The notes beneath the pieces are model-generated. The model worked only from the letters and a program-made list of their open reading frames with translations, was not told the DNA's origin and searched no databases. From positions 1-30,638 of the forward strand of contig JBBQXJ010000059.1 in assembly GCA_038209745.1 (NCBI GenBank): a DNA stretch of 30,638 bases, given 5' to 3'. Below, one piece after another: positions 3,441-22,505 of this stretch; position 1 is the stretch's first letter; each line of letters begins with the position of its first letter. A program made the position numbers and the translations under genes. Origin of the DNA: Verrucomicrobiota bacterium. Its GTDB lineage: Bacteria > Verrucomicrobiota > Verrucomicrobiia > Limisphaerales > CANJSG01.

Positions 3441-3480
3441 AAAAAAAAGAGCCGCCGTTCATCACGGCGGCTCCGTTTTT
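3441..3480. terminator. Bidirectional Rho-independent terminator between the convergent ATP-grasp and glnII genes
   Basis: A8-gagccgccgt-tcatc-acggcggctc-cg-T5. Confidence 0.85.
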
Positions 3481-3505
3481 GGAAGTGGCTTCCGGATTGG
3501 ACCGC

Positions 3506-4528
3506 CTACTTGAGCGGAACAGTCGCGATCGTCTGCAGGATACGGCCGGCGATCTGATACGGATCGCCCTGGGAGTTCGGACGGCGATCCTCGAGATAGC
3601 CCTTGTGGCCGCCGTTGACGAAGCTGTGCGGCACCCGGATGGAGGCGCCGCGGTTGGCCAGACCGTAGTTGAACTTGTCGATCGACTGGGTCTCGTGCAG
3701 ACCGGTCAGGCGGAGATGGTTGTCCGGGCCATACACGGCGATGTGCTCGTTCTTGTATTTGTCGAACGCCGCCATGAGAGATTCGAAGTAGTCCTTCCCG
3801 CCGACTTCGCGCATATGCTCGGTCGAGAAGTTGGCGTGCATGCCGGAGCCGTTCCAGTCGACGTCCTTGCCGAGCGGCTTGCAGTGCCAGTTGACGTCCA
3901 CGCCGTATTTTTCGGTGAGGCGGAGGAGGAGGTAGCGAGCCATCCACATCTCGTCGGCGGCTTTTTTGGAGCCCTTGCCGAAGATCTGGAATTCCCACTG
4001 GCCCTTGGCCACTTCGGCGTTGATGCCTTCGTGGTTGATGCCGGCGTCCAGACACTGGTCGAGGTGCTCTTCGACGATTTCGCGGGCGATGTCGCCGACG
4101 TTCTTGAAGCCGACACCCGTGTAGTATTCGCCCTGGGGAGAGGGGAATCCGTCTTCCGGAAAGCCCAGAGGCCTCCCGTCCTGATAGAAGAAATACTCCT
4201 GCTCGAAGCCGAACCAAGCACCCGGATCGTCCATGATGTTCGCCCTGGAATTGCTCGGGTGCGGGGTCTTGCAGTCGGGCATCATGACTTCGCACATGAC
4301 GAGAGCGCCGTTTTTGCGGGCGGGATCAGGATAGACCGCCACAGGCTTGAGCATGCAGTCGGAACTGCGGCCCTCGGCCTGCCGGGTCGAGCTGCCATCA
4401 AAACCCCACATCGGGAGTTCTTCGAGCTTGGGGAAGCCGCTGAACTCTTTGACCTGGGTTTTGCTGCGGAGGTTCGGGACGGGCTCGTAACCGTCGAGCC
4501 AGATGTATTCCAGTTTGTATTTCGCCAT
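3506..4528 (-). CDS. glnII: Glutamine synthetase type II
   Basis: 340 aa with [72 protein letters not shown] and YLEDRRP. Length and motifs are those of GSII, not GSI. Confidence 0.95.
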
Positions 4529-4580
4529 GGAAGTGGATAAAGGATTCTATTGTGGTGTTCCTAACGCAGAGAGACTTTTC

Positions 4581-4596
4581 AGCACTTAGGATGCCG
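4581..4596 (-). promoter_or_regulatory. Putative sigma54 (-24/-12) promoter of glnII
   Basis: Minus strand reads CGGCATCCTAAGTGCT: GG-N10-GC with exact sigma54 spacing, about 52 nt upstream of the glnII ATG. Confidence 0.6.
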
Positions 4597-4865
4597 TGAC
4601 GGAGCGAGACCATGCCGAGCCGGCCCAAGGAATCAAGACCGGGGACGGTTTCCGCGTTTAGGATGTGCCAATTGAGAATGCCAACCCCGTTTGCAAAACC
4701 CAGGATCTCGTCCTGGCAGAGCCTGCTTCAATTTGACCGGCTTGTTCCAAAACAAGCATCTTGATCAACAAGCGTTGTCCTCGACCTTGGATCAATCGCT
4801 CCGGAATCCTTCAACCAAATGAAACTTGGGGTTGCCACTTCCGGGGATCCCGTTAGCTCATCTCC

Positions 4866-5249
4866 ATGCTGAAAGTGAAGGACACGCTCCGGGCCACCGT
4901 CCACCTCAGCTTCGACGGCCGGGTCTTCAAGGTCTACCACGGCACCGATGCGCGGACCCGGTTCGACAAGGAGGTCAAGGTGTTGAAGTTTCTCGAAACC
5001 AAAAACTGCCCGTTCGTCCCCAGGCTGCTCGAAGCCGATCCGGTCAAGCTCCGCATCATCACCACCAATTGCGGCAAACGCGTGGAGCATCTCGACGACG
5101 ACCGGACCAAGGAAATCTTCGACGAGCTCCAACAGTATGGTGTCCGCCACGACGACGCCGAAGCGCGCAACATCACCTACCGGCAGGCCGACGGCCATTT
5201 TTGCGTGATCGATTTCGAATTCGCCACAATCCTATCGGACCCCGCTTAA
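4866..5249 (+). CDS. Minimal protein-kinase-like (PKL) fold protein, 127 aa
   Basis: Candidate beta3 Lys (VFK22), alphaC Glu (DKE36), catalytic loop H95-D-D97-x4-N102 and a DFG equivalent (ID116FE). The protein ends 11 aa after D116. Confidence 0.75.
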   Translation: MLKVKDTLRATVHLSFDGRVFKVYHGTDARTRFDKEVKVLKFLETKNCPFVPRLLEADPVKLRIITTNCGKRVEHLDDDRTKEIFDELQQYGVRHDDAEARNITYRQADGHFCVIDFEFATILSDPA

Positions 5250-5262
5250 CCGCCCGCCTTGC

Positions 5263-6105
5263 ATGGATCATCCTGCCCACCCGCCCGTCGCCACCGGATT
5301 GAAATGGTCCGGCTGCACAGACCGCGGCAAAATCCGCCCGAACAACGAAGACGCCTTTCTCGGCGTCCTGTTCGACGCCCGCGAGGTCCAGCGACTGGGC
5401 AAGATCGGTGAGGCTTCGACCGAACAGAACGACTTCGCCTTCGCCGTGAGCGACGGGATGGGCGGAGCGAAAGCGGGCGAGCTCGCCAGCCGTATCACCG
5501 TCGAAAAAATCACCACCTTGCTGCCCAAATCCTTCCAACAGCGCGCCGCAGGACTCGCCCCCGGGTTTTCCGACGTGTTGCCCGAGCTGTTCGCCCAGAT
5601 TCACCGCGCTTTGGTCGTCGTGGGGGACGCCTATGACGAATGTCGCGGGATGGAGGCGACGTTGAGCCTGTGCTGGTTCACCCCCGGCTGGATGTATTTC
5701 GGCCACGTCGGGGACAGTCGCATCTACTACCTCCCGGCCGGAGCGGACCAGCTCAAACAGCTGAGCGCGGACGACACCCATGTCGGGTGGCTGTTCCGAG
5801 CCGGCAAGATCAACGAGCGCGAAGCCCGGACCCATCCCCGCCGCAGCGTGTTGCAGAAATCGCTCGGTGGTGGAAACCAGTTCGTCGATCCCCAGCTTGG
5901 AGCCGTGGGCTACGAATCGGGCGATCTCTTTCTCATCTGCTCGGACGGGTTGGTGGACGGGCTCTATGACCGCAGTTTGGTGGAGTTGCTTCGGTCTCCC
6001 ACCGCGGCCCAATCCGCAGCCAGTCCCGCCCAGAGGCTGGTGACCGCCGCCGTGCAGGCCTCCGGCCGCGACAACACCACCGCCGTGGTCGTCGAGGTGC
6101 AGTGA
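5263..6105 (+). CDS. PP2C/PPM-family Ser/Thr protein phosphatase
   Basis: TDRGKIRPNNEDAF, VSDGMGG, HVGDSRIY, CSDGL and GRDNTT. It starts 13 nt after the kinase stop. Confidence 0.93.
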   Translation: MDHPAHPPVATGLKWSGCTDRGKIRPNNEDAFLGVLFDAREVQRLGKIGEASTEQNDFAFAVSDGMGGAKAGELASRITVEKITTLLPKSFQQRAAGLAPGFSDVLPELFAQIHRALVVVGDAYDECRGMEATLSLCWFTPGWMYFGHVGDSRIYYLPAGADQLKQLSADDTHVGWLFRAGKINEREARTHPRRSVLQKSLGGGNQFVDPQLGAVGYESGDLFLICSDGLVDGLYDRSLVELLRSPTAAQSAASPAQRLVTAAVQASGRDNTTAVVVEVQ

Positions 6106-6120
6106 GAAAAGGCACTCCCT

Positions 6121-6156
6121 AAAACGAAACGCCGGCCACAGCAGGTGTGGTCGGCG
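6121..6156 (-). terminator. Putative terminator for glnB, convergent with PP2C
   Basis: Stem cgccggccaca/tgtggtcggcg (6130-6156) followed on the minus strand by tttcgtttt. Confidence 0.6.
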
Positions 6157-6177
6157 CAATAAAGTCGGTCCGGATGA

Positions 6178-6570
<393 letters not shown>

Positions 6571-6617
6571 TCACGGGCCTCCGTCGGTCGTCGAAGCGGG
6601 ACGTTTTCAGGGCGTCA

Positions 6618-6645
6618 TTGACACCGAATAGCTCCCTGATAGCGT
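6618..6645 (+). promoter_or_regulatory. Putative sigma70 promoter of korAB (TTGACA-N16-TAGCGT)
   Basis: Perfect -35 box. Divergent from the glnB promoter. Confidence 0.55.
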
Positions 6646-6719
6646 CCCTTCCATCCAGCAAACGCCATCCTACCTTTTTCATGGGGGCGGCTGCAGGAGC
6701 CAATTCTGTCCAACCGAAC

Positions 6720-8549
6720 ATGAGCGACGCCTTACCGACCGCCGAGCCTTCCAATTCCAGCGGTTCCACCAAAATCACCCAAATCCAGGAAGCGGTCATC
6801 CGCATTGCCGGCAACTCCCAGGACGGCATCCAGGCCATCGGCGGATTCCTCGCACGCCTCGCCGGCCGGAGCGAACAGGAGGTCATGACCTTCATGACCA
6901 TCCCCGCCACCATCTCGGGCGGCCCATCCATCTTCCAGGTCCGCATCGGCTCGGGCGAAGTGCTCAGCCCCGGCGACGAGGCCGACATGCTCGTCGCCTT
7001 CTACCAGCACAGCTACGAGAACCATCTCAACTCGCTCAAGCTCGGCGGGATCGTCCTCTACGACTCCGACCACGTGACCGAGTTCAAGCCCGAGAACCAG
7101 GAGAAGTATCGCCACGTCGGTCTGCCCATCTCCAGCCTGACGGTCGAAGCCATCGGCGGCACCGGCCGCGACAAGGGCAAGAACGTCTACACCCTCGGCC
7201 TGCTCGCCCGCGTCTACGACTTGGACATCGAAAAGCTCAAGAAGCTGATCAACGAGCGGTTCACCGGCAAGGATCCCAAGATCGCCGAGACCGCCATCAC
7301 CTGCTTCATGTCGGGCTACAGCCACCAGCTGCAGGACCTGATCAAGACCTACCAGTTCCAGCACGCGGATCTGAAGGGCCACCAGCAGGTCGTGATGAAC
7401 GGCAACGAAGCCCTCACCTACGGACTCATCACCGCCGGCATCCGCTTCGGCGCCGGCTACCCGATCACGCCCTGGTCCGACATCATGGAACTTCTCCGCA
7501 AGGAGCTGCCCAAATACGGCGGCAGCTTCCTCCAGTGCGAGGACGAGATCGCCTCCGTCTCCATGGCCATCGGGGCCGGTTGGGGCGGCCGCGTCGCGGT
7601 CACCGGTTCCTCCGGTCCCGGCATCTCCCTCAAGACCGAGGCCATCGGCTGGGCGGTCATGGCGGAAATCCCCCTGATCGTCGTGGATGTGCAGCGCGGC
7701 GGACCGTCCACCGGATTGCCGACCAATGTTGAACAGTCGGACCTGAACATCGCCTGCTTCGGCGGCCACGGCGACAGCCCGCGTGTCGTGCTCGCTCCGG
7801 CCAGCGTCGAGGACTGCTTCTACACCGCGATCGAGGCCGTGAACATCGCCCGCAAGTTCAGCACCCCGGTCTTCATCCTCAGCGACCAGGGCATCGCCAC
7901 CCGCATCGAGGCGTTCGCCGAGCCGAACCTCAAGGAGCTCTTCCAGGACATCTCCCCGGATCTCACCCCGGTGGCCGACCACAAACCCTATGACCTTTCC
8001 GCCCCCGACGGTGTCACTCGCCATCTGGCGCCCGGCACCCGCGTGGCCAGCGGCAAATACCCTGTCGTCACCGGTCTGGAGCATGACGAGCTCGGCCATC
8101 CCACCGGCTCGCCCAAGCTCCACGTCGCCATGACGGCCAAGCGGCGCAACAAGATCAAGAAGCTCGCCTCCGAGATCCCGACCCCGAAGACCTACGGCCC
8201 GAACGAAGGCCAGATCCTCATCGTCGGGTGGGGCAGCACCCGAGGCCCGATCTGCGAAGCCGTGGACAAGTTCCGCTCCCTTGGCGACGCCGTTTCCGCG
8301 CTGCACATCAAGCACATCAATCCGCTGCCCAACGGGCTCGACGAGATCTTCAAGGGCTTCCACCACGTCCTCGTGGTGGAGATGAACGACGAAGGGCTCT
8401 ACGGACAGGGCCAGTTCGCCGCGCTGCTCCGGGCCCGCTTCGCCGATCCCAGGATCAAGGGCATCACCAAGGTCGACGGCCTCAACTGGAAGGTGAAGGA
8501 AATCATCGACCGCGTCCGGACCGCCGCCACCGCCGGACAACCCGCCTAA
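6720..8549 (+). CDS. korA: 2-oxoacid:ferredoxin oxidoreductase alpha subunit (gamma-alpha fusion), probably 2-oxoglutarate-specific
   Basis: AGYPITP, EDEIAS, SSGPG and VQRGGPSTGLPT. Start set at ATG 6720 because the ORF-track TTG 6618 coincides with the -35 box. Substrate specificity is inferred. Confidence 0.88.
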   Translation: MSDALPTAEPSNSSGSTKITQIQEAVIRIAGNSQDGIQAIGGFLARLAGRSEQEVMTFMTIPATISGGPSIFQVRIGSGEVLSPGDEADMLVAFYQHSYENHLNSLKLGGIVLYDSDHVTEFKPENQEKYRHVGLPISSLTVEAIGGTGRDKGKNVYTLGLLARVYDLDIEKLKKLINERFTGKDPKIAETAITCFMSGYSHQLQDLIKTYQFQHADLKGHQQVVMNGNEALTYGLITAGIRFGAGYPITPWSDIMELLRKELPKYGGSFLQCEDEIASVSMAIGAGWGGRVAVTGSSGPGISLKTEAIGWAVMAEIPLIVVDVQRGGPSTGLPTNVEQSDLNIACFGGHGDSPRVVLAPASVEDCFYTAIEAVNIARKFSTPVFILSDQGIATRIEAFAEPNLKELFQDISPDLTPVADHKPYDLSAPDGVTRHLAPGTRVASGKYPVVTGLEHDELGHPTGSPKLHVAMTAKRRNKIKKLASEIPTPKTYGPNEGQILIVGWGSTRGPICEAVDKFRSLGDAVSALHIKHINPLPNGLDEIFKGFHHVLVVEMNDEGLYGQGQFAALLRARFADPRIKGITKVDGLNWKVKEIIDRVRTAATAGQPA

Positions 8550-8584
8550 ACCGAACCCGAGAAGCCAACACTCCCCCAAGTCCC

Positions 8585-9541
8585 ATGAGCGAAACCAGTC
8601 TCCCCTTCGCGGTTCTTCCCCGCACGACCCGGACCGATCTGCCCGCCCCGGCACCGATCGCCGACATCGACCGCAAACCGCTGACCAAGAAAGAAACCTC
8701 CGCCGACCATCCCACTTGGTGCCCCGGCTGCGGCGACTTCTCGGTCCTCGCGCTCTACTTCAAGCTCATTGAACGGAAGAAGATCTGGCACGAGAAGATC
8801 ACCACTGTCGCCGGCATCGGTTGCTCCAGCCGCTTCCCCTACTTCGTCCAGGCCCATGGTGCGCACTTCATCCATGGCCGCGCCTTGCCGTTCGCCAGCG
8901 GCGTTTCCCTGAGCCGGCCCGACCTGCATGTGTTCGTCTTCGGAGGCGACGGCGACGCCTTCTCCATCGGCGGGAACCACTTCACCCACACCGCCCGCAA
9001 GAACATCAAGCTGACCTACGTGGTCATGGACAACCAGGTCTACGGCCTGACCAAGAACCAGACCTCGCCCACGTCCCCCGTCGGCTACAAGTCCAAGACC
9101 GATGTCTGGGGCAGCGGCGACCGTCCAATCATCCCGGTCAAACAAGCCATCGCCGCCGGCGCCTCCTTCGTCGCCCGCACCACCGCCACCAATCCCAACC
9201 ACGTCCTTGCGATGATGGAAGCGGCCATGGAGCACGACGGCTTCAGCTTCATCCAGTGCCTGAGCGAGTGCATTGAATTCTTCCCCGGCGCCTTCGACTC
9301 GGCCACGCCGCGCAAGGGTGGCACCTTCACCGAAGTGCCGAAGGAACACGACGTGACCGACGAATACGCCGCCTACAAGCTCTCCGACACGCCGATGCCC
9401 GGCCATTTCGGCATCTTCTACAACAACCCCCGTCGCACCAAGAACGCCCACGAAGCCAAGATCGTCGCCGACGCGCAGGCCAAGGTCACCGGCCTGGAAG
9501 ACTGGCAGAAGCTCCAGAAAGTGTTCGATCGGCTGAAATAA
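8585..9541 (+). CDS. korB: 2-oxoacid:ferredoxin oxidoreductase beta subunit
   Basis: WCPGCGD, GIGCSSR, HGRALP, the TPP-binding motif GGDGD...DN, and YGLTKNQTSPTS. Start ATG 8585. Confidence 0.9.
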   Translation: MSETSLPFAVLPRTTRTDLPAPAPIADIDRKPLTKKETSADHPTWCPGCGDFSVLALYFKLIERKKIWHEKITTVAGIGCSSRFPYFVQAHGAHFIHGRALPFASGVSLSRPDLHVFVFGGDGDAFSIGGNHFTHTARKNIKLTYVVMDNQVYGLTKNQTSPTSPVGYKSKTDVWGSGDRPIIPVKQAIAAGASFVARTTATNPNHVLAMMEAAMEHDGFSFIQCLSECIEFFPGAFDSATPRKGGTFTEVPKEHDVTDEYAAYKLSDTPMPGHFGIFYNNPRRTKNAHEAKIVADAQAKVTGLEDWQKLQKVFDRLK

Positions 9542-10312: not shown

Positions 10313-11089
10313 TCAGATCCCCAGCCGCTTGGCCACTTCCTCGGCCAGCACTTCGTAGGCGGCGGCCCCGGTGCTGTATTTGTCGTAGTGGATGATCGGC
10401 TTGCCGAAGCTGGGCGCTTCCGCCAATCGCGTGGTGCGGGGAATCACGGTATCGAAAACTTTGTCGCCGAAATGTTGGCGCACTTCGCCGACCACCTGGT
10501 GGGAGAGATTGGTCCGACCATCGAACATGGTCATGACGACTCCAAGGATGTCCAAGTGCGGATTGATCTCGGACTCCCGGAGCTGGTTCCACAACCGCGT
10601 GATCATCGAAATGCCCTCAAGCGCGTAGTATTCGCACTGCAACGGCACCAGGAGGAAATGGGCGGCGGCAAATGCGTTCAGCGTGAGGATGCCGAGCGAC
10701 GGAGGGCAATCGATCAGGATCACGTCGTAGCGGTCGCTTTCGGCGATGGGCCGGAGCCCTTCCTTGAGCCGCAAGAGATAGTTTTCCTGGCGAGCCAGTT
10801 CGATGTCGGCGCCGCAGAGATCGAGTTCGCTCGGGATCAGGTCCAAGTGCTCGAAGGAGGTCTGCTGGATCTTGTCGACCAACGAACCCTCGCCCAAAAG
10901 CACGCGATAACAGGAGGCGCCCTCGGTCTTCTCAAAGCCGAGTCCGCTGGTGCCGTTGGCCTGCGGATCGAGATCGAGCAGAAGAACCCGTTTGCCCATG
11001 GCGGCGAGACACGCGGCGAGATTGACGGACGTGGTGGTCTTGCCCACGCCACCCTTCTGATTGGAAACGGCTACGATGCTGGATGACAC
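10313..11089 (-). CDS. parA: ParA/Soj-family ATPase
   Basis: Deviant Walker A NQKGGVGKTT, plus DLDPQAN, IDCPPSLG, QCEYYALEG and LAEAPSFG. Probable GTG start at 11089. Confidence 0.88.
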   Translation of the reverse strand: MSSSIVAVSNQKGGVGKTTTSVNLAACLAAMGKRVLLLDLDPQANGTSGLGFEKTEGASCYRVLLGEGSLVDKIQQTSFEHLDLIPSELDLCGADIELARQENYLLRLKEGLRPIAESDRYDVILIDCPPSLGILTLNAFAAAHFLLVPLQCEYYALEGISMITRLWNQLRESEINPHLDILGVVMTMFDGRTNLSHQVVGEVRQHFGDKVFDTVIPRTTRLAEAPSFGKPIIHYDKYSTGAAAYEVLAEEVAKRLGI

Positions 11090-11189
11090 GGAGCAGATTA
11101 AATGAGGCGCGCCGCGACGGAGCAAGGGCGCAGCGTCGGGAAAACCAAATCCTATCCGAGTCGTAACGAGACCAGAGGATCAATCCACG

Positions 11190-11215
11190 AAAAAGGCAGC
11201 CTCATGGGCTGCCTT
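11190..11215 (-). terminator. Terminator ending the ACIII/cco operon
   Basis: aaggcagcc-tcatg-ggctgcctt stem with a T-run on the minus strand, 28 nt past the last cytochrome c stop. Confidence 0.75.
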
Positions 11216-11243: not shown

Positions 11244-11852
11244 CTACTTGAGCGGAATGGCCAGCAAGTCCGCAGCCGTCCACTGCTCGCTCTTGCCGGC
11301 TTCTTTGGCCCGGATCGCCTTCACTTCTTCGGGCGTTACCAACGAGCCTTTGTTGCCCCACGTGTTGCGGACGTAGCTGAGCACATTGGCGATCTCGTCG
11401 TCCTTCAATGAGTCCTTCCACGGCACCATGTTGTTGTTGTAGTCCTTGCCGCTGACCTTGATCGGGCCCTGAAGCCCATTAAGAACGATACGGATGATCC
11501 GGGCATGTCCGTCGGCATTGACCCAGTCCGATCCGGCCAACGGTGGGAACAACGGTGCCAAACCCTGGCCGCTGGCCTGATGGCAGGCTGCGCAGTTCTT
11601 TCCGAACACCTGTTTCCCCTTGATAAGTTCAGGCGGAATGTTCGCGGGGGGATGGGCAATCTCCACCTTGGCAAAATCCTGATACGACCCGTAGACGTTC
11701 GGATCGAACGCACCGCCGGAATCGACCAGCCGGGAGATGCCGACGAAGGCGAAGAGACCGAGGAGCGTGACTGCCCAGAGCGGCGTCGGAATGTGGCCCA
11801 CCTTGGGCTCGCGCGACTGCTGGACTTCTGAATTTGTCTTGGAATCGCTCAT
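11244..11852 (-). CDS. Membrane-anchored monohaem cytochrome c
   Basis: N-terminal TM helix, CAACH, FPPLAGSDWV, axial Met region NNMVPW and VLSYVRNTWGN. Confidence 0.88.
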   Translation of the reverse strand: MSDSKTNSEVQQSREPKVGHIPTPLWAVTLLGLFAFVGISRLVDSGGAFDPNVYGSYQDFAKVEIAHPPANIPPELIKGKQVFGKNCAACHQASGQGLAPLFPPLAGSDWVNADGHARIIRIVLNGLQGPIKVSGKDYNNNMVPWKDSLKDDEIANVLSYVRNTWGNKGSLVTPEEVKAIRAKEAGKSEQWTAADLLAIPLK

Positions 11853-11858
11853 CTCCGG

Positions 11859-12587
11859 TTACTTCTTCGCCTCCGGAGAAGCCGCTTCGACCGTGTTGGT
11901 CACGCCGGCCACACCGTTGGTCTTGGGCGCATACATCGGGGCTTCGAACAGGTTCACGTTCTGTTTCAAGCTCAACAGGTAGGCGACCAACTCGGTTGCC
12001 TGCTTCTTGGGAACCACTTCCTCGTCGGGCGCGAGCCGGAGCGCCTTGCGTTGTTCTTCCGAGAAATCCAGCGCTTTGGAGGAGGGTCCGAACTTCACGT
12101 CGACCTTGCGACGCTCGAACAAGTCGCGATAGGGCGGCATGGAGGACTTCTCGACCAGCGCCTGCGGAGAATAGAGATGCATCATCTGCCACTTGGCGTC
12201 CGGGAGGCGGACGCCGACGTTCGACAGATCCGGCGCGAGCCTCTGGGTTCCGAACAGGGCCGGTTGGTCGAAGAGATAGTCGCGATGGACGCTGAAGCGG
12301 CCGTCCTGGGTCCAACGGAGGTCCGCTTGGGTCACGCCGACCTGTTGGCTGTGGCAGTAGTAGCAGCCTTCCTTGCGATAGATCTGGTGGCCTTGTTCGG
12401 CTTGGCCGACTCGGGCCAAGGGATAGATGTCGCCCGGGTCTCCCTCCACCGGAGGGCGTTCAGCGGGTTGCATCTGGCCGGTCGGAACTTGGCGACCCAA
12501 CTGGATCTGCGGAGCCACCACCATACCGGTCCAAGACCCGACAAAGGTCACGAACAGTCCGATGAAAATGAGCGTGACGTGGTTCAT
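11859..12587 (-). CDS. ccoO: cbb3-type oxidase subunit II-like monohaem cytochrome c
   Basis: IYRKEGCYYCHSQQV, FGTQRLAPDLSNVG, HLYSPQ, SSMPPY and LVAYLLSL. Confidence 0.85.
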   Translation of the reverse strand: MNHVTLIFIGLFVTFVGSWTGMVVAPQIQLGRQVPTGQMQPAERPPVEGDPGDIYPLARVGQAEQGHQIYRKEGCYYCHSQQVGVTQADLRWTQDGRFSVHRDYLFDQPALFGTQRLAPDLSNVGVRLPDAKWQMMHLYSPQALVEKSSMPPYRDLFERRKVDVKFGPSSKALDFSEEQRKALRLAPDEEVVPKKQATELVAYLLSLKQNVNLFEAPMYAPKTNGVAGVTNTVEAASPEAKK

Positions 12588-14023
12588 TACCGTTTAGACG
12601 CCGGAGCGGTTTTTGAGCCGAAGAACTCCATGCACGCGGTTTTGATCGAGCCGAGCAATTGGACCAGGATCAACACGGAGGCCACGAACAGTATGATGTA
12701 ACCCAGAGTCGCCGGTCCGATGAATCCGTTGAGGCCGCGGCTGACTTCCGCCGAAGATTTCGAGAGATCGGCCCAGAGCACCGCCTGCTTCATTCCACCC
12801 AAAATGAGCGGCAGAGTGGTGAAGGCGAGGCCAAGCAGAAGGAGAAAAAGGGTCGAGCCCTTGATCACGCCGCGTTCCTTGTTTCCGAGGAGTTCGGGCA
12901 GCATCAGGTTCAAGCCGGCGAACAGAGCCAAGGTGACGACGCCGGTGAAGAAGACGTTCATCAAACCCGGCTGGAAAAGAGTCAGTCCGAGAACGGCGTT
13001 TTTGGCGGGAGCGTAGAAGGCCAGACTGAGGAGCCCGTAGGCGGCCAGTGACTGGATGGAGAGACGGGAGAATCGGAGCGCGGCGGCTTCAGACTTGTCG
13101 GCGGCTTCGGGGGCGCTCGTCTTCCAAAGGGTGTGCACGATCAGGGCGATCGGCACGAGCAGGATGAGATTCGCCGTGCCGCTGACGCTGACAATCCAGC
13201 GGGGAAGCGGGGCCGACGCCATCAATCCACCCCAACCCGCAATGATCGCGAACAGCCAAAAGGCGAACACGGCCGAAGATCGGCTGTAGAGTTCCGTGCG
13301 GGAAACCCGCGCCACGACATAGAGCAGCGCGCCAATGGCGAGGAAACCCAGCCACAGCCAAGTAAAGGCATGGATGAACCACCCGTTGACGCTGAGCTGA
13401 ACGGCGCCCCGGACCGTTTGGAAGAGAAGCGTCCACGTGGCGGTGCCCAAAACCCAGGGGAGGGAGAACAAAGCTCCGACAATGAACCAAGCGGCGGGAT
13501 AGAGCTCCCGTTCTTCGCGGAAGGAAATCGTAATGAGTCCCGACAGGGTAAACACCACCGAAAGGAGTGTCAGGACGGCCAAAATTTGTCTCGGCATTTC
13601 CAACCAGGGAAAACCGGTGTTCGCGCCGCAGAGAATACCGATGATCCCAACGAACACCGCCAAGTTCCAGAGGACCGTGGCGAAGATCACGACCGGGGCC
13701 AAAGCGAGCTTCGAACGGGAAAGGCGGGTCAATATCCAGAGTCCGACCGCAAGGCCGATCTGGGTCAAGAATCCGTAGACCAGGGCGGTGGTGGCTGCGG
13801 GTTGGAGCCGGCCATAGGAGAACGCCGGAAAGTCCGCCAGGAAAAGCGGGCCGTGCATTTTGACGGAGGCCAATACCTGAAGCAGACCGGCGAGCACGAA
13901 CCAACCCAGTCCCTTGATCGTCAGCAACAGCAGGGCTATCCGACCGGCTGCGTCGCCACCGGAGCTTGGGGCGCTCTCGGCGGCGGGAATAGCCGACGTG
14001 GGATTTGAGGATAAAGCGGGCAT
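12587..14023 (-). CDS. CcoN-like (cbb3 subunit I fold) polytopic membrane protein lacking most metal ligands
   Basis: CcoN-like segments SYGRLQP, WLEMP, ELYPAAWF, GWFIH and LYSRSSAVFAFW. Only 3 His in 478 aa. TAATG overlap with ccoO. Start ATG 14023. Confidence 0.75.
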   Translation of the reverse strand: MPALSSNPTSAIPAAESAPSSGGDAAGRIALLLLTIKGLGWFVLAGLLQVLASVKMHGPLFLADFPAFSYGRLQPAATTALVYGFLTQIGLAVGLWILTRLSRSKLALAPVVIFATVLWNLAVFVGIIGILCGANTGFPWLEMPRQILAVLTLLSVVFTLSGLITISFREERELYPAAWFIVGALFSLPWVLGTATWTLLFQTVRGAVQLSVNGWFIHAFTWLWLGFLAIGALLYVVARVSRTELYSRSSAVFAFWLFAIIAGWGGLMASAPLPRWIVSVSGTANLILLVPIALIVHTLWKTSAPEAADKSEAAALRFSRLSIQSLAAYGLLSLAFYAPAKNAVLGLTLFQPGLMNVFFTGVVTLALFAGLNLMLPELLGNKERGVIKGSTLFLLLLGLAFTTLPLILGGMKQAVLWADLSKSSAEVSRGLNGFIGPATLGYIILFVASVLILVQLLGSIKTACMEFFGSKTAPASKR

Positions 14024-14034: not shown

Positions 14035-14400
14035 TCACTCGAAGGGATTCGCTTTTTCGGGCAGCTTGGCGGTGGCCTTGTCGAGCCGCTCCAAGAGCGC
14101 CTTGCGTCCGGCGGCGGGGCTCTTCCATTCACGGAGGACGATCTCTTTGGCCGAGTCCACCGGGATCCGGTAGATCTGCCGGGTTCCGTCGATCAACGCG
14201 GCATTGGTCAGCGTGCCGCTCGACGCCGCGAAGATTTCACCGCGGAACTGTAGCCGTTCCTGACGCCGGGCCTCGGTGAGATCCGCCGGCTTCACGGCCG
14301 AGGACACTTTGGCGACGACGACCGCGACGACGGCCACGGCACCGAGGATGCCGATCGCATAGATGACCGCGGACGATTGCTTGCAGCAGGATGAATTCAT
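14035..14400 (-). CDS. Small single-TM ACIII accessory subunit, ActG-like
   Basis: One TM helix plus IYRIPVDSAKEIV, resembling the ActG RIPIxxAM motif. Positioned directly after actF. Confidence 0.55.
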   Translation of the reverse strand: MNSSCCKQSSAVIYAIGILGAVAVVAVVVAKVSSAVKPADLTEARRQERLQFRGEIFAASSGTLTNAALIDGTRQIYRIPVDSAKEIVLREWKSPAAGRKALLERLDKATAKLPEKANPFE

Positions 14401-14415: not shown

Positions 14416-15687
14416 TTATTTAAGGCCGAGATGGAGGGCGGCAACGGAGCCTTTGGCCGGCGGCACATAGACACCCATCATTTCCGCCATTCGAGGATCT
14501 TTTTGCGGATAAGCCGGATGGGCCTTGAACATTTTCAGCCAAATGGTGGAAAGGACGCCGGCGAACAAAGCCAAGAACCCGATGTCCGGCAAAGTCAGGA
14601 CAAAGCCCGAAGTATGGAGGGACGGCATGACGTTGAACTGCATGTCCATGTAGTGCATGAGCCACGCCCAGACGATGAGCGGAAACATGATGGCAATGTT
14701 GAGCTTGGCGTCGATGCGGAGCATGGCCAGGAACGGGAGGAAGAAATGCCCGAAGATCATGAGCATGCCCACAAGCCACCAGGAGCCGACTTCGCGGCGC
14801 ACGAACCAGAAGGTTTCCTCGGGCAGATTGGCGTTCCAAATCAGGAAATACTGGGAAAACGCGATGTAGGCGTAGAACACCGTGAAGGCGAAGAACATCG
14901 TGCCGATGGTGTGCATCGTCTTGGGAGTGACGATGGCAGCCAACGGACCGGTCCGCTTCAGGATCAGCGTGATCAAATAGACGGTCGCGTATGTCACCCA
15001 GACGCTTCCGGCGAAATAATAGACGCCGTACATCGTCGAGAAGAACTGGTACATCAGAGACTTCATCAGCATGATGCAGAGGAAGGTCAGTCCCACTCCG
15101 AAGATGTAGATGCCTCCGCCGGTCCAGACCCGGGAGCTCCGGGTCCACTTGGCCGCTCCGTCCTTGTCCTGGTTCAACGAGTTGGAACGCAGCTTCCATG
15201 CAACGAGACTGAGCAGGCTGAAGAAGAAGATGATCGTCGCAAACCAGCCGATCTTGGTGAACAGGGGGTACTTGGCGTGGACGGCGTGGTCCTGCTGGTT
15301 CCAGAGAAAGCTATACAGCCCGCTGTTTTCGTTCAGGGCGAAGAGGGCGATGGGAATCCAGAGGACAAACATCACCGGGATCAGCATCGCCATGTGCTCC
15401 ACGACACGGCGGATCGCGACCGACCAGTTGGCATCGAACAGATGGTGCAAAAGGACGAGGAACAACCCGCCCAGCGCCAAGCTGAGGAAGAACATGTAGG
15501 CGGTGAGGTAGGAGAAGGCGACCTGTTGGAGGCCCGGGACCTTGTGTTCTCCGTCCATGCTTCCGGCCAAGTAGCCGAGAATCACCAGCACGAGGCCGCC
15601 GATGATCATGAACATCGGAACCTTGCCCCAGATGGGACTCAGTTTCAGCGGCTCCTGTTTGTCGTTCGTTTTCGGGTGGGCGCCCAT
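14416..15687 (-). CDS. actF: Alternative complex III subunit F (NrfD-like membrane protein)
   Basis: Polytopic, with ANWSVAIRRVVE, FFSTMYGVYYFA and YIAFSQYFLIWNANLPEET. Operon position agrees. Confidence 0.85.
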   Translation of the reverse strand: MGAHPKTNDKQEPLKLSPIWGKVPMFMIIGGLVLVILGYLAGSMDGEHKVPGLQQVAFSYLTAYMFFLSLALGGLFLVLLHHLFDANWSVAIRRVVEHMAMLIPVMFVLWIPIALFALNENSGLYSFLWNQQDHAVHAKYPLFTKIGWFATIIFFFSLLSLVAWKLRSNSLNQDKDGAAKWTRSSRVWTGGGIYIFGVGLTFLCIMLMKSLMYQFFSTMYGVYYFAGSVWVTYATVYLITLILKRTGPLAAIVTPKTMHTIGTMFFAFTVFYAYIAFSQYFLIWNANLPEETFWFVRREVGSWWLVGMLMIFGHFFLPFLAMLRIDAKLNIAIMFPLIVWAWLMHYMDMQFNVMPSLHTSGFVLTLPDIGFLALFAGVLSTIWLKMFKAHPAYPQKDPRMAEMMGVYVPPAKGSVAALHLGLK

Positions 15688-15705: not shown

Positions 15706-16320
15706 TTATTTCTTGAGCGTCGCCATCACATCGGCGGGCACGTCGCTCGCCGCAGCCAGACGGCTGATCTGGAGCGCACGCACATAGGCGATGACAGCCC
15801 AGCGGTCCTGGGCGTCCAGCTTGTCGGCATACGCCATCATCGTGTTCTTGCCGTGTGTGATCGTGTGGAAGATCTCGCCGTCGGCCATCTTGACGATCCG
15901 GGGATCATGCAGGTTGGCGGTGGCGGCCATTCCATACTTGGAGGTGACACCTTTGCCGTCGCCCGCAGTGCTGTGGCAGGGGGAGCAGTAGATGTTGAAC
16001 CGTTGCTGGCCTCGCTCGACCAGTCCCGCCGAGACAACGATCGGAATCGCGTCGACGAAGTTGGTCGTTCCCGGTTTGAAGCCGGTGTTGACCTCGTTCG
16101 ACTCGAAGGCGGAACCGCGGGAAACGGTGCCTTCAACCGGCTTCCGGGAAGACAATCCGTCCGGGAAGAAGTTGTTCTTGTCCTCGGGCCTCAGCTTGGG
16201 TTGTCGATCCATGTCGGGAAAGACCTCGATGGGCGGCTTGCGCGACTTGTCGCCACGGAAGCCAGCGACAGCGACGACACCGACGACCAATATGACAAAT
16301 CCTAGAAGGAAATAGCGCAT
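15706..16320 (-). CDS. actE: Alternative complex III subunit E (monohaem cytochrome c)
   Basis: DMDRQPK, PVEGTVSRG, RGQQRFNIYCSPCH and DRWAVIAYVRALQ. Confidence 0.9.
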   Translation of the reverse strand: MRYFLLGFVILVVGVVAVAGFRGDKSRKPPIEVFPDMDRQPKLRPEDKNNFFPDGLSSRKPVEGTVSRGSAFESNEVNTGFKPGTTNFVDAIPIVVSAGLVERGQQRFNIYCSPCHSTAGDGKGVTSKYGMAATANLHDPRIVKMADGEIFHTITHGKNTMMAYADKLDAQDRWAVIAYVRALQISRLAAASDVPADVMATLKK

Positions 16321-16901
16321 TACTCCTCCACCAACTCGATGTGCTTGCTGCCGGTCGATTCCAGCAACTTGCGGGTTTCCGTCTCGGAATAGCGCGGATC
16401 GGCGGTCTCGATCGCGATGAAGAACTTGTCGTTGTTGGCGCCGAGTTCAAAACGGCGGTTCTTGAACAACGGGTTGTACCACTTCGGGAGGCGGTTCAGG
16501 AAGAAGATGCCGAAGACGGACCCGAATGCCGCCAGAAGGATCGTCAACTCATAGGACACCGGGAAGGCGAAGAGAGGACTGAAGAGCGGTTTGCCGCCAA
16601 CCACGATCGGATAATCCACGGCGCCCATCCACCAGATCATGGTCATGCCGATGGTGAAGCCGGCAACCCCACCGAGGAACGTGAAGTATCCCACCGGCGA
16701 GTTCTTGAGGCCCATGGCCTCGTCCATTCCGTGGACGGGAAAAGGGCTGTGGACGTCCCAAATTTTGTAGCCGGCGTCACGGACCTGTTCAGCGGCGTGC
16801 ATCGCGTCGGCCGGATTCTCATATTGCGCCAGAATGGCAAACGGACGGCCGACTGTGGGACTGATCGAGGTTTCCGGCTGCGATTGGGAAGCAGTGTTCA
16901 T
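16320..16901 (-). CDS. actD: Alternative complex III subunit D (DUF3341)
   Basis: DVHSPFPVHGMDEAMG, DYPIVVGGKP and FPVSYELTIL, with two TM helices. Confidence 0.9.
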   Translation of the reverse strand: MNTASQSQPETSISPTVGRPFAILAQYENPADAMHAAEQVRDAGYKIWDVHSPFPVHGMDEAMGLKNSPVGYFTFLGGVAGFTIGMTMIWWMGAVDYPIVVGGKPLFSPLFAFPVSYELTILLAAFGSVFGIFFLNRLPKWYNPLFKNRRFELGANNDKFFIAIETADPRYSETETRKLLESTGSKHIELVEE

Positions 16902-18373
16902 CAGTGTTGCCCTCCTTTAGCGCCACCCAGCGGATGGTGCGGATCGGCCTGCGGGGTCACACCCTTCACCTCCGAGATGGCGATGACGGGGAGGAACTTC
17001 ATGAACAGCAGAAACAGCGTCATGAACAAGGCGAAGGAACCGACGAAGGTCAATATGTCGACCCAGGTCGGGCTGAACATACCCCAGTTCGAGGGCATGA
17101 AATCACGGTGCAGCGAGGTGACGATGATGTTGAACCGCTCAAACCACATGCCGATGTTCACGAAGATCGAGATGATCCAGACGAAGATCATGCTGCTGCG
17201 CAGTTTCTTGAACCAAAACAAGTGCGGCGTGAAGACATTGCAGATCATCATGGTCCAGTAGGCCCACCAGTAAGGCGCCGGATCGACATGGAACAGCGGA
17301 CCGAAGATGAACGGGTCGGCCACGCGGTTGCGGATGAACAGATCCAGCTCGTAGGGATTGCCGCCATACCAGGCTATGAAGAACTCCATGATGTAGGCGT
17401 AGCCCACCATCGAGCCAGTACCGAGGATCACCTTGCACATCAGGTCGATGTGCCGCTTGGTGATGATGTCTTCCAGTTTACAGAGCGAACGGAGCGGGAT
17501 CAACAGGGTCAAGACCATGCCAAAACCGGAGAAGATCGCACCCGCCACGAAGTAAGGCGGGAAGATCGTGGTGTGCCAGCCAGGAAGCTGGGAGACGGCG
17601 AAGTCGAACGACACGATCGAGTGGACGGAGAGCACCAGCGGGGTGGCCAGTCCGGCCAGGATCAAATAGGCCTTTTCGTAGTTCGACCAATGCCGGTTGG
17701 CACCACTCCATCCGAAGGCGAAGAGACCGTAGAAGAACTTCTTCACCTTGGTTTTCGCCCGGTCACGCATCAGGCCCAAGTCGGGAATGAGCCCGACATA
17801 CCAGAAGAGGAGCGACACCGTCCCGTAGGTCGAGACCGCGAACACGTCCCACAGCAAAGGGGAGCGGAACTGCGGCCAAATGCCGTTTGAATTAGGAAAT
17901 GGGATCAAATAACCGGGATAGAGGGCAAACCAGACCCGGCCCGTGTGGACCACGGGAAAGATACCGGCGCAAACCACGGCGAAAAGAGTCATGGCCTCGG
18001 CGGAACGGTTGATCGAGGTTCGCCATTTCTGCCGAAGGAGGAAGAGCACGGCCGAGATCAGGGTTCCCGCGTGGCCAATACCGATCCAGAAGACGAAATT
18101 AGTGATGTCCCAAGCCCAAGCCACGGGTTGGTTCAAGCCCCAGACCCCGATACCGGTGGAAATGAGGTAGGCGATCATGGTGGCCATCATCAGAGTGCCA
18201 CCGGCACTGACGATGAAGGCGGGCCACCACCACTTGGCGGCCTTGCCTTCGGCGATACCGGCGATCTGGTCCGAAATCCATGAGAGCGGACGATTGTTGA
18301 GGACCAGGGGTTCCCGTTCGAGTTCAGCGGGCGGTCCCTGGACCTTCGGGGCGGTAGGAGCGACGGAGGCCAT
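16901..18373 (-). CDS. actC: Alternative complex III subunit C (NrfD/PsrC-type quinol-binding)
   Basis: [62 protein letters not shown] and [19 protein letters not shown]. Confidence 0.93.
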
Positions 18374-21300
18374 TAGTGCTGTTCTCCTTTCATTTCCGCA
18401 GCTGCGCCGTGGATCGGGGCTTCACCCGTTTCAGCGTGCTCCGTTCCGTGGCCATGCCCCTCGAACGGGCTGGCTTCATACTTCGTTTCATACTCCTTCG
18501 TAGTGAACGAGAGTTCGTAGGCGTCCGGCATCTTGGGGTTCGGATTACGGATGCGGGCCAAGTAGGTGACACGCGGCCGAGTTTCGAGGAATCCGAGCAC
18601 CTCGTAGTTGCGCTGGTGTTTGCGAAGCTTGGAGACCGCGCTCTCGGGGTCGATCAGGTTGCCGAAGACGATCGCTTCGGCCGGGCAGGCCTGGGCACAG
18701 GCCGTGGTGAAGGTGCCTTCCGGAACCTGCACATCGCCCGACGGTCCTGCTTTGACCTTCTGGTTGATCTTGGCCTCTTCGATGCGCTGGACGCACATGG
18801 TGCATTTTTCCATCACGCCGCGCATCCGGACGGTGACGTTCGGGTTCTTACCCAGCTTGATGATCTCCCACTCGGCCGACTTGTTCTTGTCGACGCCGAA
18901 GGGCCCTTTGTAGAGGGACGCATCGGTGCTGAACCAGCTCACGCTGCCCCGGGCGTCGGTCTTGGCCACCGCGTAGTCGTTCTCGCGCTTGTTGTAGTCG
19001 AAGAAATTGAATCGCCGGGCCTTATAGGGGCAGTTGTTCGAGCAATACCGCGTGCCGATGCAGCGGTTGTAGGCCATCACGTTCAGGCCTTCCTCGTCGT
19101 GGACGGTGGCGTTCACCGGACAGACGCTTTCGCACGGCGCGTTTTCGCAGTGCTGGCACATCATCGGCTGCGTCACCACCTGCGGATCTTCGATCCCGCC
19201 GGCGTAGTAGCGGTCGAGCCGGAGCCAGTGCATTTCCCGGCCCTTGATGACCTGGTCCTTGCCAACGATCGGGACGTTGTTTTCGCTCTGGCAAGCCACC
19301 ATGCAAGCGGAACAGCCAACGCAGGACGACAGGTCGACGACCATTCCCCACTGATGGATTTCACTCTTGAGGATTTGCCGACGGTCGGAGCGAGGGCCGG
19401 TCAGATTGCCCTTCTCCGAACTGAAATGTTCGTAGGGATGCTGATAGATGCCGGCGGGCCGCGCTTCAACCCCACCCGCCGTGCTGACAGGGGTCTTAGT
19501 GATGAAGGCACCATGGGACTCGATGTCCCAGTTCCGCGCGAAGTCTTCCTTCTTCTTCCAGTTGGCCAACGTGGCCTCGCGCACGATGGGACGGCCTTCC
19601 ATCGCACCATGTTCCTGCGTGGTCGCGATATGGGCGAACTTCCCGTCGAGAATCTTGAGCACCGCACCCGCCGCGAAGTAGGGAGCGGCCCAAGTGCGGG
19701 CGAGATAGGCGTTGAAGCCAGCGTGGCGACCAACGCGGCCGACAATCTGACGACCGTAGCCCAGAGCCACCGCGATGACGTTGTCCGCGAGACCGGGCTG
19801 CACCCAGGCGGGTCCGGTGAACTCCCGACCGCCGATCGTGACGGTGACGACATCGTTGCCCACGGTCGACTCGTTGCTTTTGAGCGTGTGGTCGACGTTC
19901 TCGGTTCCGCGCTGATTCTTGGGATCCGTGATTTTCAGCTTCAACGCCTTGGCGGTGGTGGCGCTGACGGCGATGACGTTTTCCCAAGTGTATTTGCCCA
20001 CCGGATCCGGCAATTCCTGGAGCCAGCCATTGTTGGCAAAGCGACCGTCGTCGACGCTGTTGTCGCGATGGAAGACGAGCTCGAAACGCCCTTCGGCCGG
20101 GGCGGCGGGAACGTTGTAGGCCAGGAGCGCGGCATTCGGAGCGACCAGCCGGACAGCCACCGGCTTGGCGGCGGAGTTGGCCATGAATCCGTCGTGCAGG
20201 AACCGCTTCCACTCCTCTTCCAGATTGAACTCGACCGTGATGCCGAAGAGCGAGCGGGCCTCACTGCGAAAGGTGTCACGGACCAAATCGTAGGAACGAA
20301 CCGTGTCGAGACCGGCGACACGGGCCAAGAGCTCCAGCTCGGTCATGCCGTCGAACAGAGGCGCGATGAGCGGCTGCACCGGAACGAGCGTGCCATCGGA
20401 GGTGCGACCATCGCCCCATGATTCAAGATAGTGCGCCTGGGTCAGGTGCCAGCCCGAAACTTTCGTGGTCTCGTCCTCGTAATAGCCGAGACGGACCACC
20501 TTGCCGGCCTTGGCGGCGGCGGCGGCGAAATCGAGATCGGCCGGTGCGTCGTAGGCGGGATTGCCTCCGGCGATGACCAGAGAGGCGACCTTGCCGGAAT
20601 TCAACTGCTGGGCGAGGTCCGCGATCGATCCGAACGCGGTATCGTCCGCCGGAAGGTATTCAACGGTCTGACCGACGGCCCCGAGGGCCACGTTGATCGC
20701 GTTGGCGAGCACATGGGCCACCAATGGCTGGCCCTGTCCCACCAGGACCAAAGCCGCACCCTTGTGCGCCACGAGATCGGCCGCGCACTCGGTCACCCAC
20801 TTCTCATTGGCGGCCGGGAACGAAGCCGACAATGCAGAACTGGCCGAGGCAAAGGCGCCAAACCCGGAAACCTGGCTGAAGACGACCGAGGCGAGTTTCG
20901 CCAGCGCGGGAACGATCTGGCTCGGGGCGGAGCGCAAACGGTGGTCGGCATTGATACCGGTCACGGTCATGATCCCCTCGACCACGTAGAGGCGGTTCAT
21001 TTCGTCGCTCGCCGACGAAGTCTTCCGACCCTTGGCGAAACGACGGATGCTGACCGCACTGTCCTCTTCACCCCCGAGGAAATCGCAGTCGAAAGCCGCA
21101 ATGGCCTTGGCCGAATCCAACTTGTAGTAGGGGCGGACCGACGTTCCAAAGGCCGCCGAGGCACCGATCGTGGCGACTTGCGGATCCACCGGTTCGTGAA
21201 CGAACAGACCGGCTTTGGGAAACTTCTTTTTTAGATCGGCCAGCACCCGGATCCGGGTGGGCGAGCTGCTCCGCTGCACCAAAATGGCCAATCCTTCGCC

Positions 21301-21858
21301 CTGGGTCTTGGCCGCATCGGCTGAAATTTCGGTCAGGACATCGGTCGCTGCCGAACGGGTGATCGTGCCGACGCTGTCTTTCGAGACCTTCCTGTAGCCC
21401 ATCGACCGATCCGGATCATACAGATCAAGGATCGAGGACTGGGAGTGGATATCGGTGCCGCCGTTGCTGTCAGGGTGCTGCTTGTTGCCTTCGACCTTGA
21501 TCGGCCGGCCGTCCATCGACTTGACCAGCAGCGGAACCGCGCCGGACTTGGTCGGCCGGGAAGAGGCATAAAAAACGGGCTTACCGTGGATGTAGCCCTC
21601 GGGCTGCTTGCCGAACGGAAGGATGTTCTCCTCCGGCCGACGGCATCCGGTCAAACCGAAGCCCGCCAAAAGAAAGGACGCCGACATCAGCTTCATGAAG
21701 CTGCGCCGACTCACCGGGTCGCTCAGCTCGCTGGCTCCGGCGGGAAACTCCTTCTCGACCCAGTTGCGGAACTCGGGAGTCTCGGCCACTTGGTCCAGGC
21801 TGCGCCAGTATTTCGGGCCGACTTCCGGCTCAGGACATTGAGGGGGAATCGTTTTCAT
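18373..21858 (-). CDS. actB: Alternative complex III subunit B (molybdopterin-oxidoreductase-like domain fused to Fe-S domain)
   Basis: YWRSL, twin-arginine SRRSFMKL, lipobox LTGC, and Fe-S motifs [38 protein letters not shown] and CTMC...CAQACP. True start is ATG 21858, in ATGA overlap with actA. Confidence 0.92.
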
Positions 21859-22505
21859 CGATGACAGGCCGAGCAGTTCTGGGAAGCGTTGACCTTCCAG
21901 TCGTGGGCGAACTTCTTGCCGTCCGACAACTGTTTCTCCGGGTTGATCTGGAGGTCGAGATTGAAGACATCCTTCGGGTCGCGCAGGGCCTTCTCGGGAT
22001 TCCGATGGCACTCCAGGCAGAACAACATGCTCAGCGGCTTGGCGTGGTACACCTCGTCCATGTGGTTGACCTGGCCGTGGCACTCCACGCAGCTCACTCC
22101 ACGGGTCACATGGACGGAGTGGTTGAAGTAGACGTAGTCCGGAGTCTTGTGGATCTGCACCCACTTCACCGGCTCGCCCGTCTCGTAGCTGTGCCGGATC
22201 GGCTCCAGCTTCGGCGATTCCTTGAGCACGATGCTGTGGCAGTTCATGCAGGTGTTCGCCGAAGGAATATTGGAGAACCAGGACTTCTCCACCCCGTTGT
22301 GGCAATACCGGCAGTCCAGCGCCAACTGGTTCGCATGGATGTCATGCGAAAAGGCCACGGGCTGGACCGGCTGATAGCCGACACGCGTGAACTTCGACGT
22401 GAAATAGTAGTTGATGCCGGCCGTGGCGGCGCCACCCAGCAATATCAACCCGACGCCGATTTTCCACGGCAACGAGTTGGTCCATTTTGGAAAGATGTCA
22501 GACAT
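21855..22505 (-). CDS. actA: Alternative complex III subunit A (pentahaem cytochrome c)
   Basis: TM anchor, QPVAFSHDIH and five CxxCH motifs (CRYCH, CMNCH, CVECH, CLECH, CSACH). Confidence 0.92.
   Translation of the reverse strand: MSDIFPKWTNSLPWKIGVGLILLGGAATAGINYYFTSKFTRVGYQPVQPVAFSHDIHANQLALDCRYCHNGVEKSWFSNIPSANTCMNCHSIVLKESPKLEPIRHSYETGEPVKWVQIHKTPDYVYFNHSVHVTRGVSCVECHGQVNHMDEVYHAKPLSMLFCLECHRNPEKALRDPKDVFNLDLQINPEKQLSDGKKFAHDWKVNASQNCSACHR

Follow-up and report, generated by a model that had tools for sequence, protein, structure and literature searches.

A CcoN homologue without its cofactor ligands is retained under selection in alternative complex III operons of Verrucomicrobiota

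In cbb3 oxidases of known structure (CcoNOP, P. stutzeri 3MK7; 9G6B), the twelve-helix subunit I, CcoN, is joined by the monohaem cytochrome c CcoO and by a third, membrane-anchored cytochrome c with two haem motifs, and the genes stand as ccoNOQP with ccoGHIS. An active CcoN can dock to a quinol:cytochrome c oxidoreductase, as in the bc1–cbb3 supercomplexes 6XKW and 8SMR, and an active A-type oxidase, aa3, forms a supercomplex with alternative complex III (ACIII) in Flavobacterium johnsoniae, where ACIII is encoded beside the oxidase module and electrons are handed over directly between c haems (Sun et al. 2018, as cited in passages of a review, PMC8498564). Here we analyse a 30,638-nt stretch of DNA from a Verrucomicrobiota bacterium (assembly GCA_038209745.1, contig JBBQXJ010000059.1, positions 1 to 30,638; hereafter the window), in which an ACIII operon continues into genes for a CcoN homologue that we call psN, an adjacent monohaem CcoO-like protein and a third membrane-anchored cytochrome c. 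The module thus resembles these systems in its parts, but differs from the bc1–cbb3 supercomplexes in that the partner is ACIII, from the ccoNOQP and ccoGHIS arrangement in that its genes are joined to those of ACIII, from cbb3 oxidases in that the third subunit carries one haem motif rather than two, and from all of them in that its subunit I, a C-family protein known here from genes alone, is without the cofactor ligands. The psN gene is held under purifying selection, and we lean, if only slightly, towards the reading that its product, no longer active as an oxidase subunit, has been retained as a scaffold for the c haems through which electrons leave ACIII.

The loss of ligands in psN is extensive. 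As the first-pass annotation of the window had reported, the frame is uninterrupted over 478 aa and contains three histidines in all. We kept its choice of the ATG at 14023 as the start within an open frame that extends to 14128; this start is favoured by a 479-aa homologue with 90% identity and 100% query coverage, and by the upstream ORF, whose end at 14035 lies 11 nt before the ATG. When psN is aligned to P. stutzeri CcoN (3mk7_A; phmmer E 3.4e-9, residues 38-423), after which ligand columns are numbered here, H60 is replaced by A77, Y251 by Ala, H345 by Leu and H347 by Asn, and H257 and H258 fall in a gap; with the genome's own canonical CcoN as reference the same columns are found, giving psN the pattern AHA--LN. 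The alignment bears out the changes that had been read by eye as GRLQPAA and GLMN, together with the reported loss of the cross-linked tyrosine and of both CuB histidines. The accompanying statement that WYGH is kept as WFIH holds for psN itself, where H218 occupies the H207 column as the only ligand retained, but carries little meaning, because this column is Asn in five of six congeneric genomes and the histidine is therefore best regarded as incidental. With one of the six histidines that serve haem b, haem b3 and CuB, and with Ala at Y251, which we take to be the cross-linked active-site tyrosine, psN probably binds neither haem nor copper. Polar columns that are 93-100% conserved in ligand-complete forms (R57, E122, T215, S240, Y317, H337 and R437) also differ in psN. 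Pfam COX1 recognises the protein with 85.3 bits (cut-off 34.8) over profile positions 5-411 of 436, whereas the NCBIfam equivalog profile for ccoN (TIGR00780) gives it 52.2 bits against a cut-off of 583.15, compared with 683.4 bits for the genome's canonical copy.

Retention of the subunit I body is evident from structure prediction. The AlphaFold2 model of psN (pLDDT 90.7, pTM 0.91) has twelve long helices, and its best matches in the PDB are CcoN chains, those of the bc1–cbb3 supercomplexes among them, with TM scores of 0.85-0.88, an rmsd of 2.2-2.4 Å and 18% identity. A complex of psN with the CcoO-like protein is predicted in the same docking as in cbb3, with a score of 0.87 against 0.00 for the best of three controls; the runs share at least 92% of contacts, with a partner pLDDT of at least 77, and of 157 solved complexes 116 attain that mark, as do 2 of 215 mismatched pairs. 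Because CcoN–CcoO complexes are among the solved structures, this pass may reflect likeness only.

To gauge constraint on psN we took DNA from a search of related genomes and estimated the ratio of nonsynonymous to synonymous divergence (dN/dS) by the Nei-Gojobori method, for ten unsaturated pairs from five congeneric genomes with dS between 0.24 and 0.86 (six pairs for the third cytochrome gene). The ratio is 0.046-0.098 for psN, 0.023-0.077 for the CcoO-like gene, 0.024-0.116 for orf121, the small ORF that precedes psN, and 0.081-0.116 for the third cytochrome c. Pairs that involved the window or genome G302 gave 0.12-0.51 and were set aside, their dS being 0.9-1.9 in every gene. In six other genomes of the genus psN is found at 53-73% identity and with no stop, the 73% to its nearest congener standing beside 72%, 72% and 74% for neighbouring genes. 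At the level of the order, 37 of 41 related genomes have a match, and the ligand-less form is found in all 29 loci that were fetched, of which 6 belong to the genus and 23 to other families; no internal stop occurs among the matches listed from these genomes, nor among those listed from the 72 of 301 genomes across the phylum that have a match. psN is therefore under selection and not decaying, so that the neutral decay against which the first-pass annotation had set its own reading is not what is seen, and, as an enzyme homologue that has lost its catalytic residues yet stays under purifying selection, it is a pseudoenzyme. A functionally dead relic that has yet to be disrupted could be expected to show the longest branch in the tree of CcoN-type proteins and the lowest ccoN profile score among the homologues listed (52 bits), and psN shows both; the low dN/dS, the lack of internal stops, the spread of the ligand-less state over the whole order sampled and a mean pairwise identity of 38% among 27 ligand-less proteins of the class nonetheless make such a relic extremely improbable. 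The peptidase-derived core proteins of mitochondrial bc1 offer an instance of an enzyme fold that was kept structurally after its catalytic residues were lost, and psN would likewise be a former enzyme turned structural subunit; the folds are unrelated and the parallel is one of analogy only.

The ligand-less state extends far beyond the window. A search of 1.84 billion cluster representatives returned 846 relatives with E<=1e-3, 187 of them with E<=1e-30; among 179 full-length proteins, 169 have His at no more than one of the six ligand columns, a count that is rough because the alignment used a fast automatic setting. Among the 72 phylum genomes with a match, 68 (the window's own counted) belong to its class and four to another; the full HHYHHHH pattern is kept in 41 of the 68 and not in the other 27. 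With the ccoN profile, ligand-complete proteins reach about 208-258 bits, ligand-less ones 52-160. In this comparison the nearest sequence relatives of psN, at 25-31% identity, are ligand-complete ACIII-linked modules, and such modules (for example L037-L041, L045-L051, L132, L146, L163) share with the window the operon slot, the gene order and the small upstream ORF but have intact ligands, and look like working, if divergent, oxidases. In 20-kb stretches around the gene, 18 of 20 loci have ACIII genes directly upstream, and a CcoO-like and a cytochrome c gene downstream, one of these loci being truncated at a contig end. The two exceptions are a contig that ends just past the gene and a locus from another class. 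Two further loci share the order ACIII, CcoN-like, CcoO-like, cytochrome c, and for the remaining class genomes the link to ACIII is assigned by clade membership only. A search for related loci with psN alone found three distant metagenome loci and none in genome contigs. What the first-pass annotation had missed, then, is that the ligand-less state is a class-wide, recurrent form of an ACIII-linked cbb3-like module whose ligands are complete in many relatives. A spare cbb3 oxidase does not explain the loss, because canonical CcoN, a separate gene, is carried by 19 of the 27 ligand-less and 27 of the 41 ligand-complete genomes.

Phylogenies speak against a single origin of the loss. In a tree of 78 CcoN-type proteins, 23 ligand-less rows form one clade and two more ligand-less lineages are nested among ligand-complete ones, requiring three changes of ligand state; when named records bring the tree to 114 rows, the large clade of ligand-less proteins comprises 51 of them, with SH-aLRT 96. 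Forcing all ligand-less rows into a single clade costs 82.6 log-likelihood units, and a single origin is rejected by the approximately unbiased (AU) test at p 0.0206, for a group that was defined by its ligands but only after the tree had been seen. The ActC tree of 56 operons implies seven changes of state, at least five of them forced by supported branches, and places the window nearest to two ligand-complete operons, L132 and L133 (78% identity). This distribution would reflect either repeated loss combined with long-branch attraction or exchange of a 3' cassette between operons.

Which columns were lost, and which were not, bears on whether psN could have acquired a different activity. If a lost column is defined as one that is at least 85% conserved in ligand-complete proteins, has the same residue in canonical CcoN and is not kept in ligand-less proteins, the list comprises R57, H60, N62, E122, E125, H156, Y158, H207, N208, T215, S240, Y251, H257, H258, S276, Y317, H337, H345, H347, W385 and R437. 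Several of these presumably bind haem propionates and calcium or line the cbb3 proton path. The columns kept in all three groups are mostly of a packing type, Trp, Gly, Pro or aromatic (W24, P42, G54, R55, R83, W102, G116, W162, W204, Y224, F244, W245, G255, P265, W267, P367, G390 and G402). Purifying selection over the whole of psN would suit a gained non-redox activity of the twelve-helix body, such as ACIII-coupled conduction of ions or protons, or the binding of a lipid or quinone in cavities that haem once filled, and in an Opitutaceae-type clade the replacement residues are both conserved and polar: 6 of the 27 ligand-less rows, and L152 and L156 as well, have QQGRHQQ or a pattern close to it. 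Against such a gain, T215, S240, Y317 and E122 are lost, S240 having become Ala in 25 of the 27; replacement patterns vary from clade to clade; and across the 27 ligand-less proteins there is no newly conserved polar column. We therefore consider a new activity unlikely, and the ion-conducting subunit that had been proposed alongside the scaffold is weakened by the same loss of polar columns.

A redox enzyme that holds haem or metal by unconventional ligands is less probable still, and we regard it as very unlikely. One candidate ligand is His57, at least 90% conserved among 32 closer homologues of psN; the column is His in only 12 of the 27 ligand-less proteins, however, and was inherited from ligand-complete forms, where 38 of 45 have it. 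The pattern HNSQRYH (L044, L148, L151, L159; G048, G300), in which both haem b histidines are kept while the haem b3 and CuB ligands and the tyrosine are lost, may represent a haem-b-only intermediate and lends this explanation some support. Weighing on the other side are the mere three histidines of psN, the Asn that replaces His218 in five of six congeners, and the loss of the columns that we take to surround the haem propionates.

The two cytochromes c that accompany psN fare differently from subunit I. Each has one haem motif, CYYCH in the CcoO-like protein and CAACH in the third cytochrome, which agrees with the first reading of both as intact, and CxxCH is retained in both proteins in all 15 ligand-less operons checked. 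The CcoO-like protein has the N-terminal helix, single CxxCH and axial Met of the CcoO/FixO family, with C75, C78 and H79 invariant and the Met present in SSMPPY; it is recognised by Pfam FixO, yet falls below the NCBIfam cut-offs. Candidate acceptors for these haems are present, in keeping with the earlier suggestion that they are encoded elsewhere. The assembly (4.58 Mb, 140 contigs, 92% complete) contains a canonical fused CcoNO of 719 aa with all ligands (683 bits), followed by CcoP and preceded by a small CcoS-like ORF and a P-type ATPase (L004, G000:C73), an A-type COX1 (442 bits) and cytochrome bd genes. It has a single ActD match and hence one ACIII, and bc1 cytochrome b was not found in the genome at this level of completeness, so that ACIII looks like the sole link from quinol to cytochrome c.

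From these observations we propose the following course. The ancestor would have been the oxidase part of an ACIII-linked cbb3-like module consisting of the small ORF, CcoN, CcoO and a cytochrome c. In the lineage of the window the ligands of haem b, haem b3 and CuB would have been lost together with the cross-link tyrosine and the accompanying polar columns, while selection retained the twelve-helix body as a membrane scaffold. On it the CcoO-like and third cytochromes c would be assembled and positioned beside ACIII, whose electrons could leave through these c haems to enzymes encoded elsewhere, the canonical cbb3 and the A-type oxidase, and perhaps to N2O reductase in one relative. In that relative (G132; L220, G132:C1:962000-975500), a nosZ cluster of cytochrome c, NosZ propeller, NosL, NosD, ABC ATPase and cytochrome c (positions 1848-9046) separates ActF from the module of small ORF, ligand-less CcoN and CcoO; its CcoN-like protein has no Pfam COX1 domain at E<=0.001. 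Passages of a preprint describe a nos cluster inside the ACIII–oxidase gene order for one strain. We infer the scaffold and electron-exit role as the most economical one, because the operon is fixed, the c haems are intact, the fold is kept, docking is predicted, bc1 was not found and a relative has the nos insertion. The first-pass annotation had arrived at a similar interpretation; its account of a full-length, ligand-less protein with acceptors elsewhere stands, now joined by selection, and the role itself is best phrased as a suggestion.

Several observations weigh against this role. The predicted CcoO interface is not additionally conserved in ligand-less proteins (entropy 1.98 vs 2.08 bits, p 0.37), whereas in ligand-complete proteins it is weakly more conserved than the rest (p 0.046). 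The axial-Met column of the CcoO-like protein (SxMPxY), Met in the window and in all six ligand-complete operons aligned, is not Met in five other ligand-less operons (L043, L152, L156, L172, L192), being His in two, Cys in two and another residue in one; this hints at an altered haem potential after the death of the oxidase, and because the column varies, a c-haem wire would not be uniform across lineages. Ligand-less branches are long (2.27 for the window vs a median of 0.16 in the CcoN tree), and constraint was therefore relaxed or shifted after the loss. Finally, selection on psN matches that on haem proteins, spans twelve helices and exceeds the obvious need of a bare anchor, so that psN may have a further role.

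Some of the same evidence would fit a different structural role, in which psN serves ACIII itself as a structural or assembly subunit, needed for the stability or the membrane organisation of that complex, and the cytochromes persist for reasons of their own. The constant gene arrangement with ACIII in 18 of 20 loci, the small ORF kept between ActF and the CcoN-like gene in both ligand states, the selection on psN, as strong as on its neighbours, and the absence of special conservation at the CcoO interface are all compatible with it. On the other hand, the nos insertion in G132 parts ActF from the module by a whole gene cluster, which means that tight co-translation with ACIII is not required, and the genomes G060, G189 and G258 have a ligand-complete relative of the module at a site away from ACIII. 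We hold an ACIII subunit to be unlikely, and continue to prefer a scaffold for the c-haem exit.

In its layout the window's operon is a single minus-strand unit, ActABCDEF, orf121, psN, CcoO-like and cytochrome c (Table 1), as read from the ORF list, and Pfam and NCBIfam searches are consistent with the names given. The ACIII assignment follows from an ActD gene flanked in one operon by the multihaem ActA, the iron-sulphur ActB, the NrfD-type ActC and ActF and the monohaem ActE; ActF itself has no Pfam match. Translational coupling of psN to the CcoO-like gene, proposed at the outset, is seen in the stop–start overlap TAATG at 12587, and a gap of 6 nt containing GGAG separates the CcoO-like gene from the last cytochrome. 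The terminator that had been placed after this cytochrome is also present: absent from the pattern-scan output, it was found by eye 3' of the stop codon and then folded, giving a nine-pair hairpin (11215-11207 with 11201-11193) followed by a U run (-20.5 kcal/mol, z -2.18). Directly downstream of it lies a ParA/Soj-type ATPase gene with a KGGVGKTT motif (10313-11125, minus strand). The product of orf121 has no Pfam or NCBIfam match; a similar ORF with a G-x-V-x-IP motif follows ActF and precedes the CcoN-like gene in most of the 20 loci, in ligand-complete and ligand-less operons alike (window; L036-L054), and the short domain carries a G-x-V-x-IP-x-x-x-A-like motif.

Table 1. Genes and terminator of the ACIII–psN operon in the window
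Feature	Coordinates	Strand	Basis
ActA, multihaem cytochrome c of ACIII	21855..22505	-	Pfam Cytochrome_C7/CIII; NCBIfam QrcA-like, 78 bits
ActB, TAT-exported molybdopterin-like and 4Fe-4S subunit	about 18373..21864 (start approximate)	-	Fer4 domains; TIGR04519 TAT-variant domain; QrcC/QrcB-like
ActC, NrfD-type quinol-binding membrane subunit	16901..18373	-	Pfam NrfD, 65.5 bits; 59-66% identity across the class
ActD	16320..16901	-	Pfam ActD, 218 bits; sole ActD match of the genome
ActE, monohaem cytochrome c	15706..16320	-	Pfam Cytochrome_CBB3/Cytochrom_C
ActF, second NrfD-like membrane subunit	14416..15687	-	position; 30-37% identity to the same slot in 18 other operons
orf121, small single-helix protein	14035..14400	-	slot between ActF and psN
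psN, ligand-less CcoN homologue, 478 aa, 12 helices	12587..14023	-	Pfam COX1, alignments, model, dN/dS
CcoO-like monohaem cytochrome c, N-terminal helix	11859..12587	-	Pfam FixO, 84 bits; start overlaps psN stop
Membrane-anchored monohaem cytochrome c (CAACH), weak CcoP-like match	11244..11852	-	Pfam Cytochrom_C, 60.8 bits; TIGR00782 ccoP, 39.6 bits, below cut-off
Intrinsic terminator closing the operon	11188..11215	-	read by eye, then folded

The survey also turned up other variants of subunit I. In P0201 (HNSHHHH), P0204 (HNYHHHH) and P0207 (HNTHHHH) the first CuB histidine is Asn and, in two of the three, the tyrosine is Ser or Thr; these altered active sites might mark a different substrate. 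The third CcoN type, the ligand-complete one found apart from ACIII (L095, L096, L097, in G258, G189 and G060), has a CcoO-like ORF with a second CxxCH, and the ACIII-linked copy of its host genomes is ligand-less. Labels of several public metagenome-assembled genomes (L134-L136, L164, L173, L190, L197), which include Akkermansia muciniphila, Dormiibacterota, Blastocatellia and Acidimicrobiia, are at odds with the placement of their ActC among Verrucomicrobiota and are taxonomically untrustworthy.

The finding bears most directly on how verrucomicrobial respiration has been read from genomes. For the verrucomicrobial methanotrophs, passages of a review (PMC8498564) call the genes beside ACIII a cbb3-type oxidase, passages of a genome paper make the same call and tie it to high oxygen affinity, and passages of a preprint list cbb3 as the high-affinity terminal oxidase of one strain and report no difference in transcripts of that oxidase between oxic and anoxic growth. 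Yet the proteins of Ca. Methylacidiphilum infernorum (named cbb3 subunit I in its source) and M. kamchatkense Kam1 (named cytochrome oxidase) have six histidines in all and the pattern SESSHFV, a loss confirmed for both by a separate alignment to solved CcoN; the CcoN-like protein of G132, the relative with the nos insertion, is 80% identical to the former. We found no published report of the ligand loss in the literature searched, some subscription papers that may bear on novelty lying outside that search.

It is quite possible, though we would stop short of calling it likely, that subunits I of this kind form a class-wide, cofactor-less family, derived more than once from an ACIII-linked cbb3-like oxidase, that makes of an ACIII–oxidase supercomplex an ACIII–cytochrome c hub feeding canonical cbb3, aa3 or, in nos-bearing operons, N2O reductase, and that the ‘high-affinity cbb3’ of Methylacidiphilum and many Verrucomicrobiae is no oxidase. 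Respiratory models built from Verrucomicrobiota genomes, as far as the passages cited above represent them, score this gene as a cbb3 oxidase of high affinity; should the subunit lack cofactors, inferences about oxygen affinity would need revision in every ligand-less lineage, which here means 27 of 68 class genomes, all 29 order relatives fetched and the proteins of two Methylacidiphilum species. With both ligand states occupying the same operon slot in close relatives, the family constitutes a natural experiment on the non-catalytic role of haem-copper oxidase subunit I, and it bears on how ACIII hands on its electrons, a step described as unresolved in passages of the review (PMC8498564).

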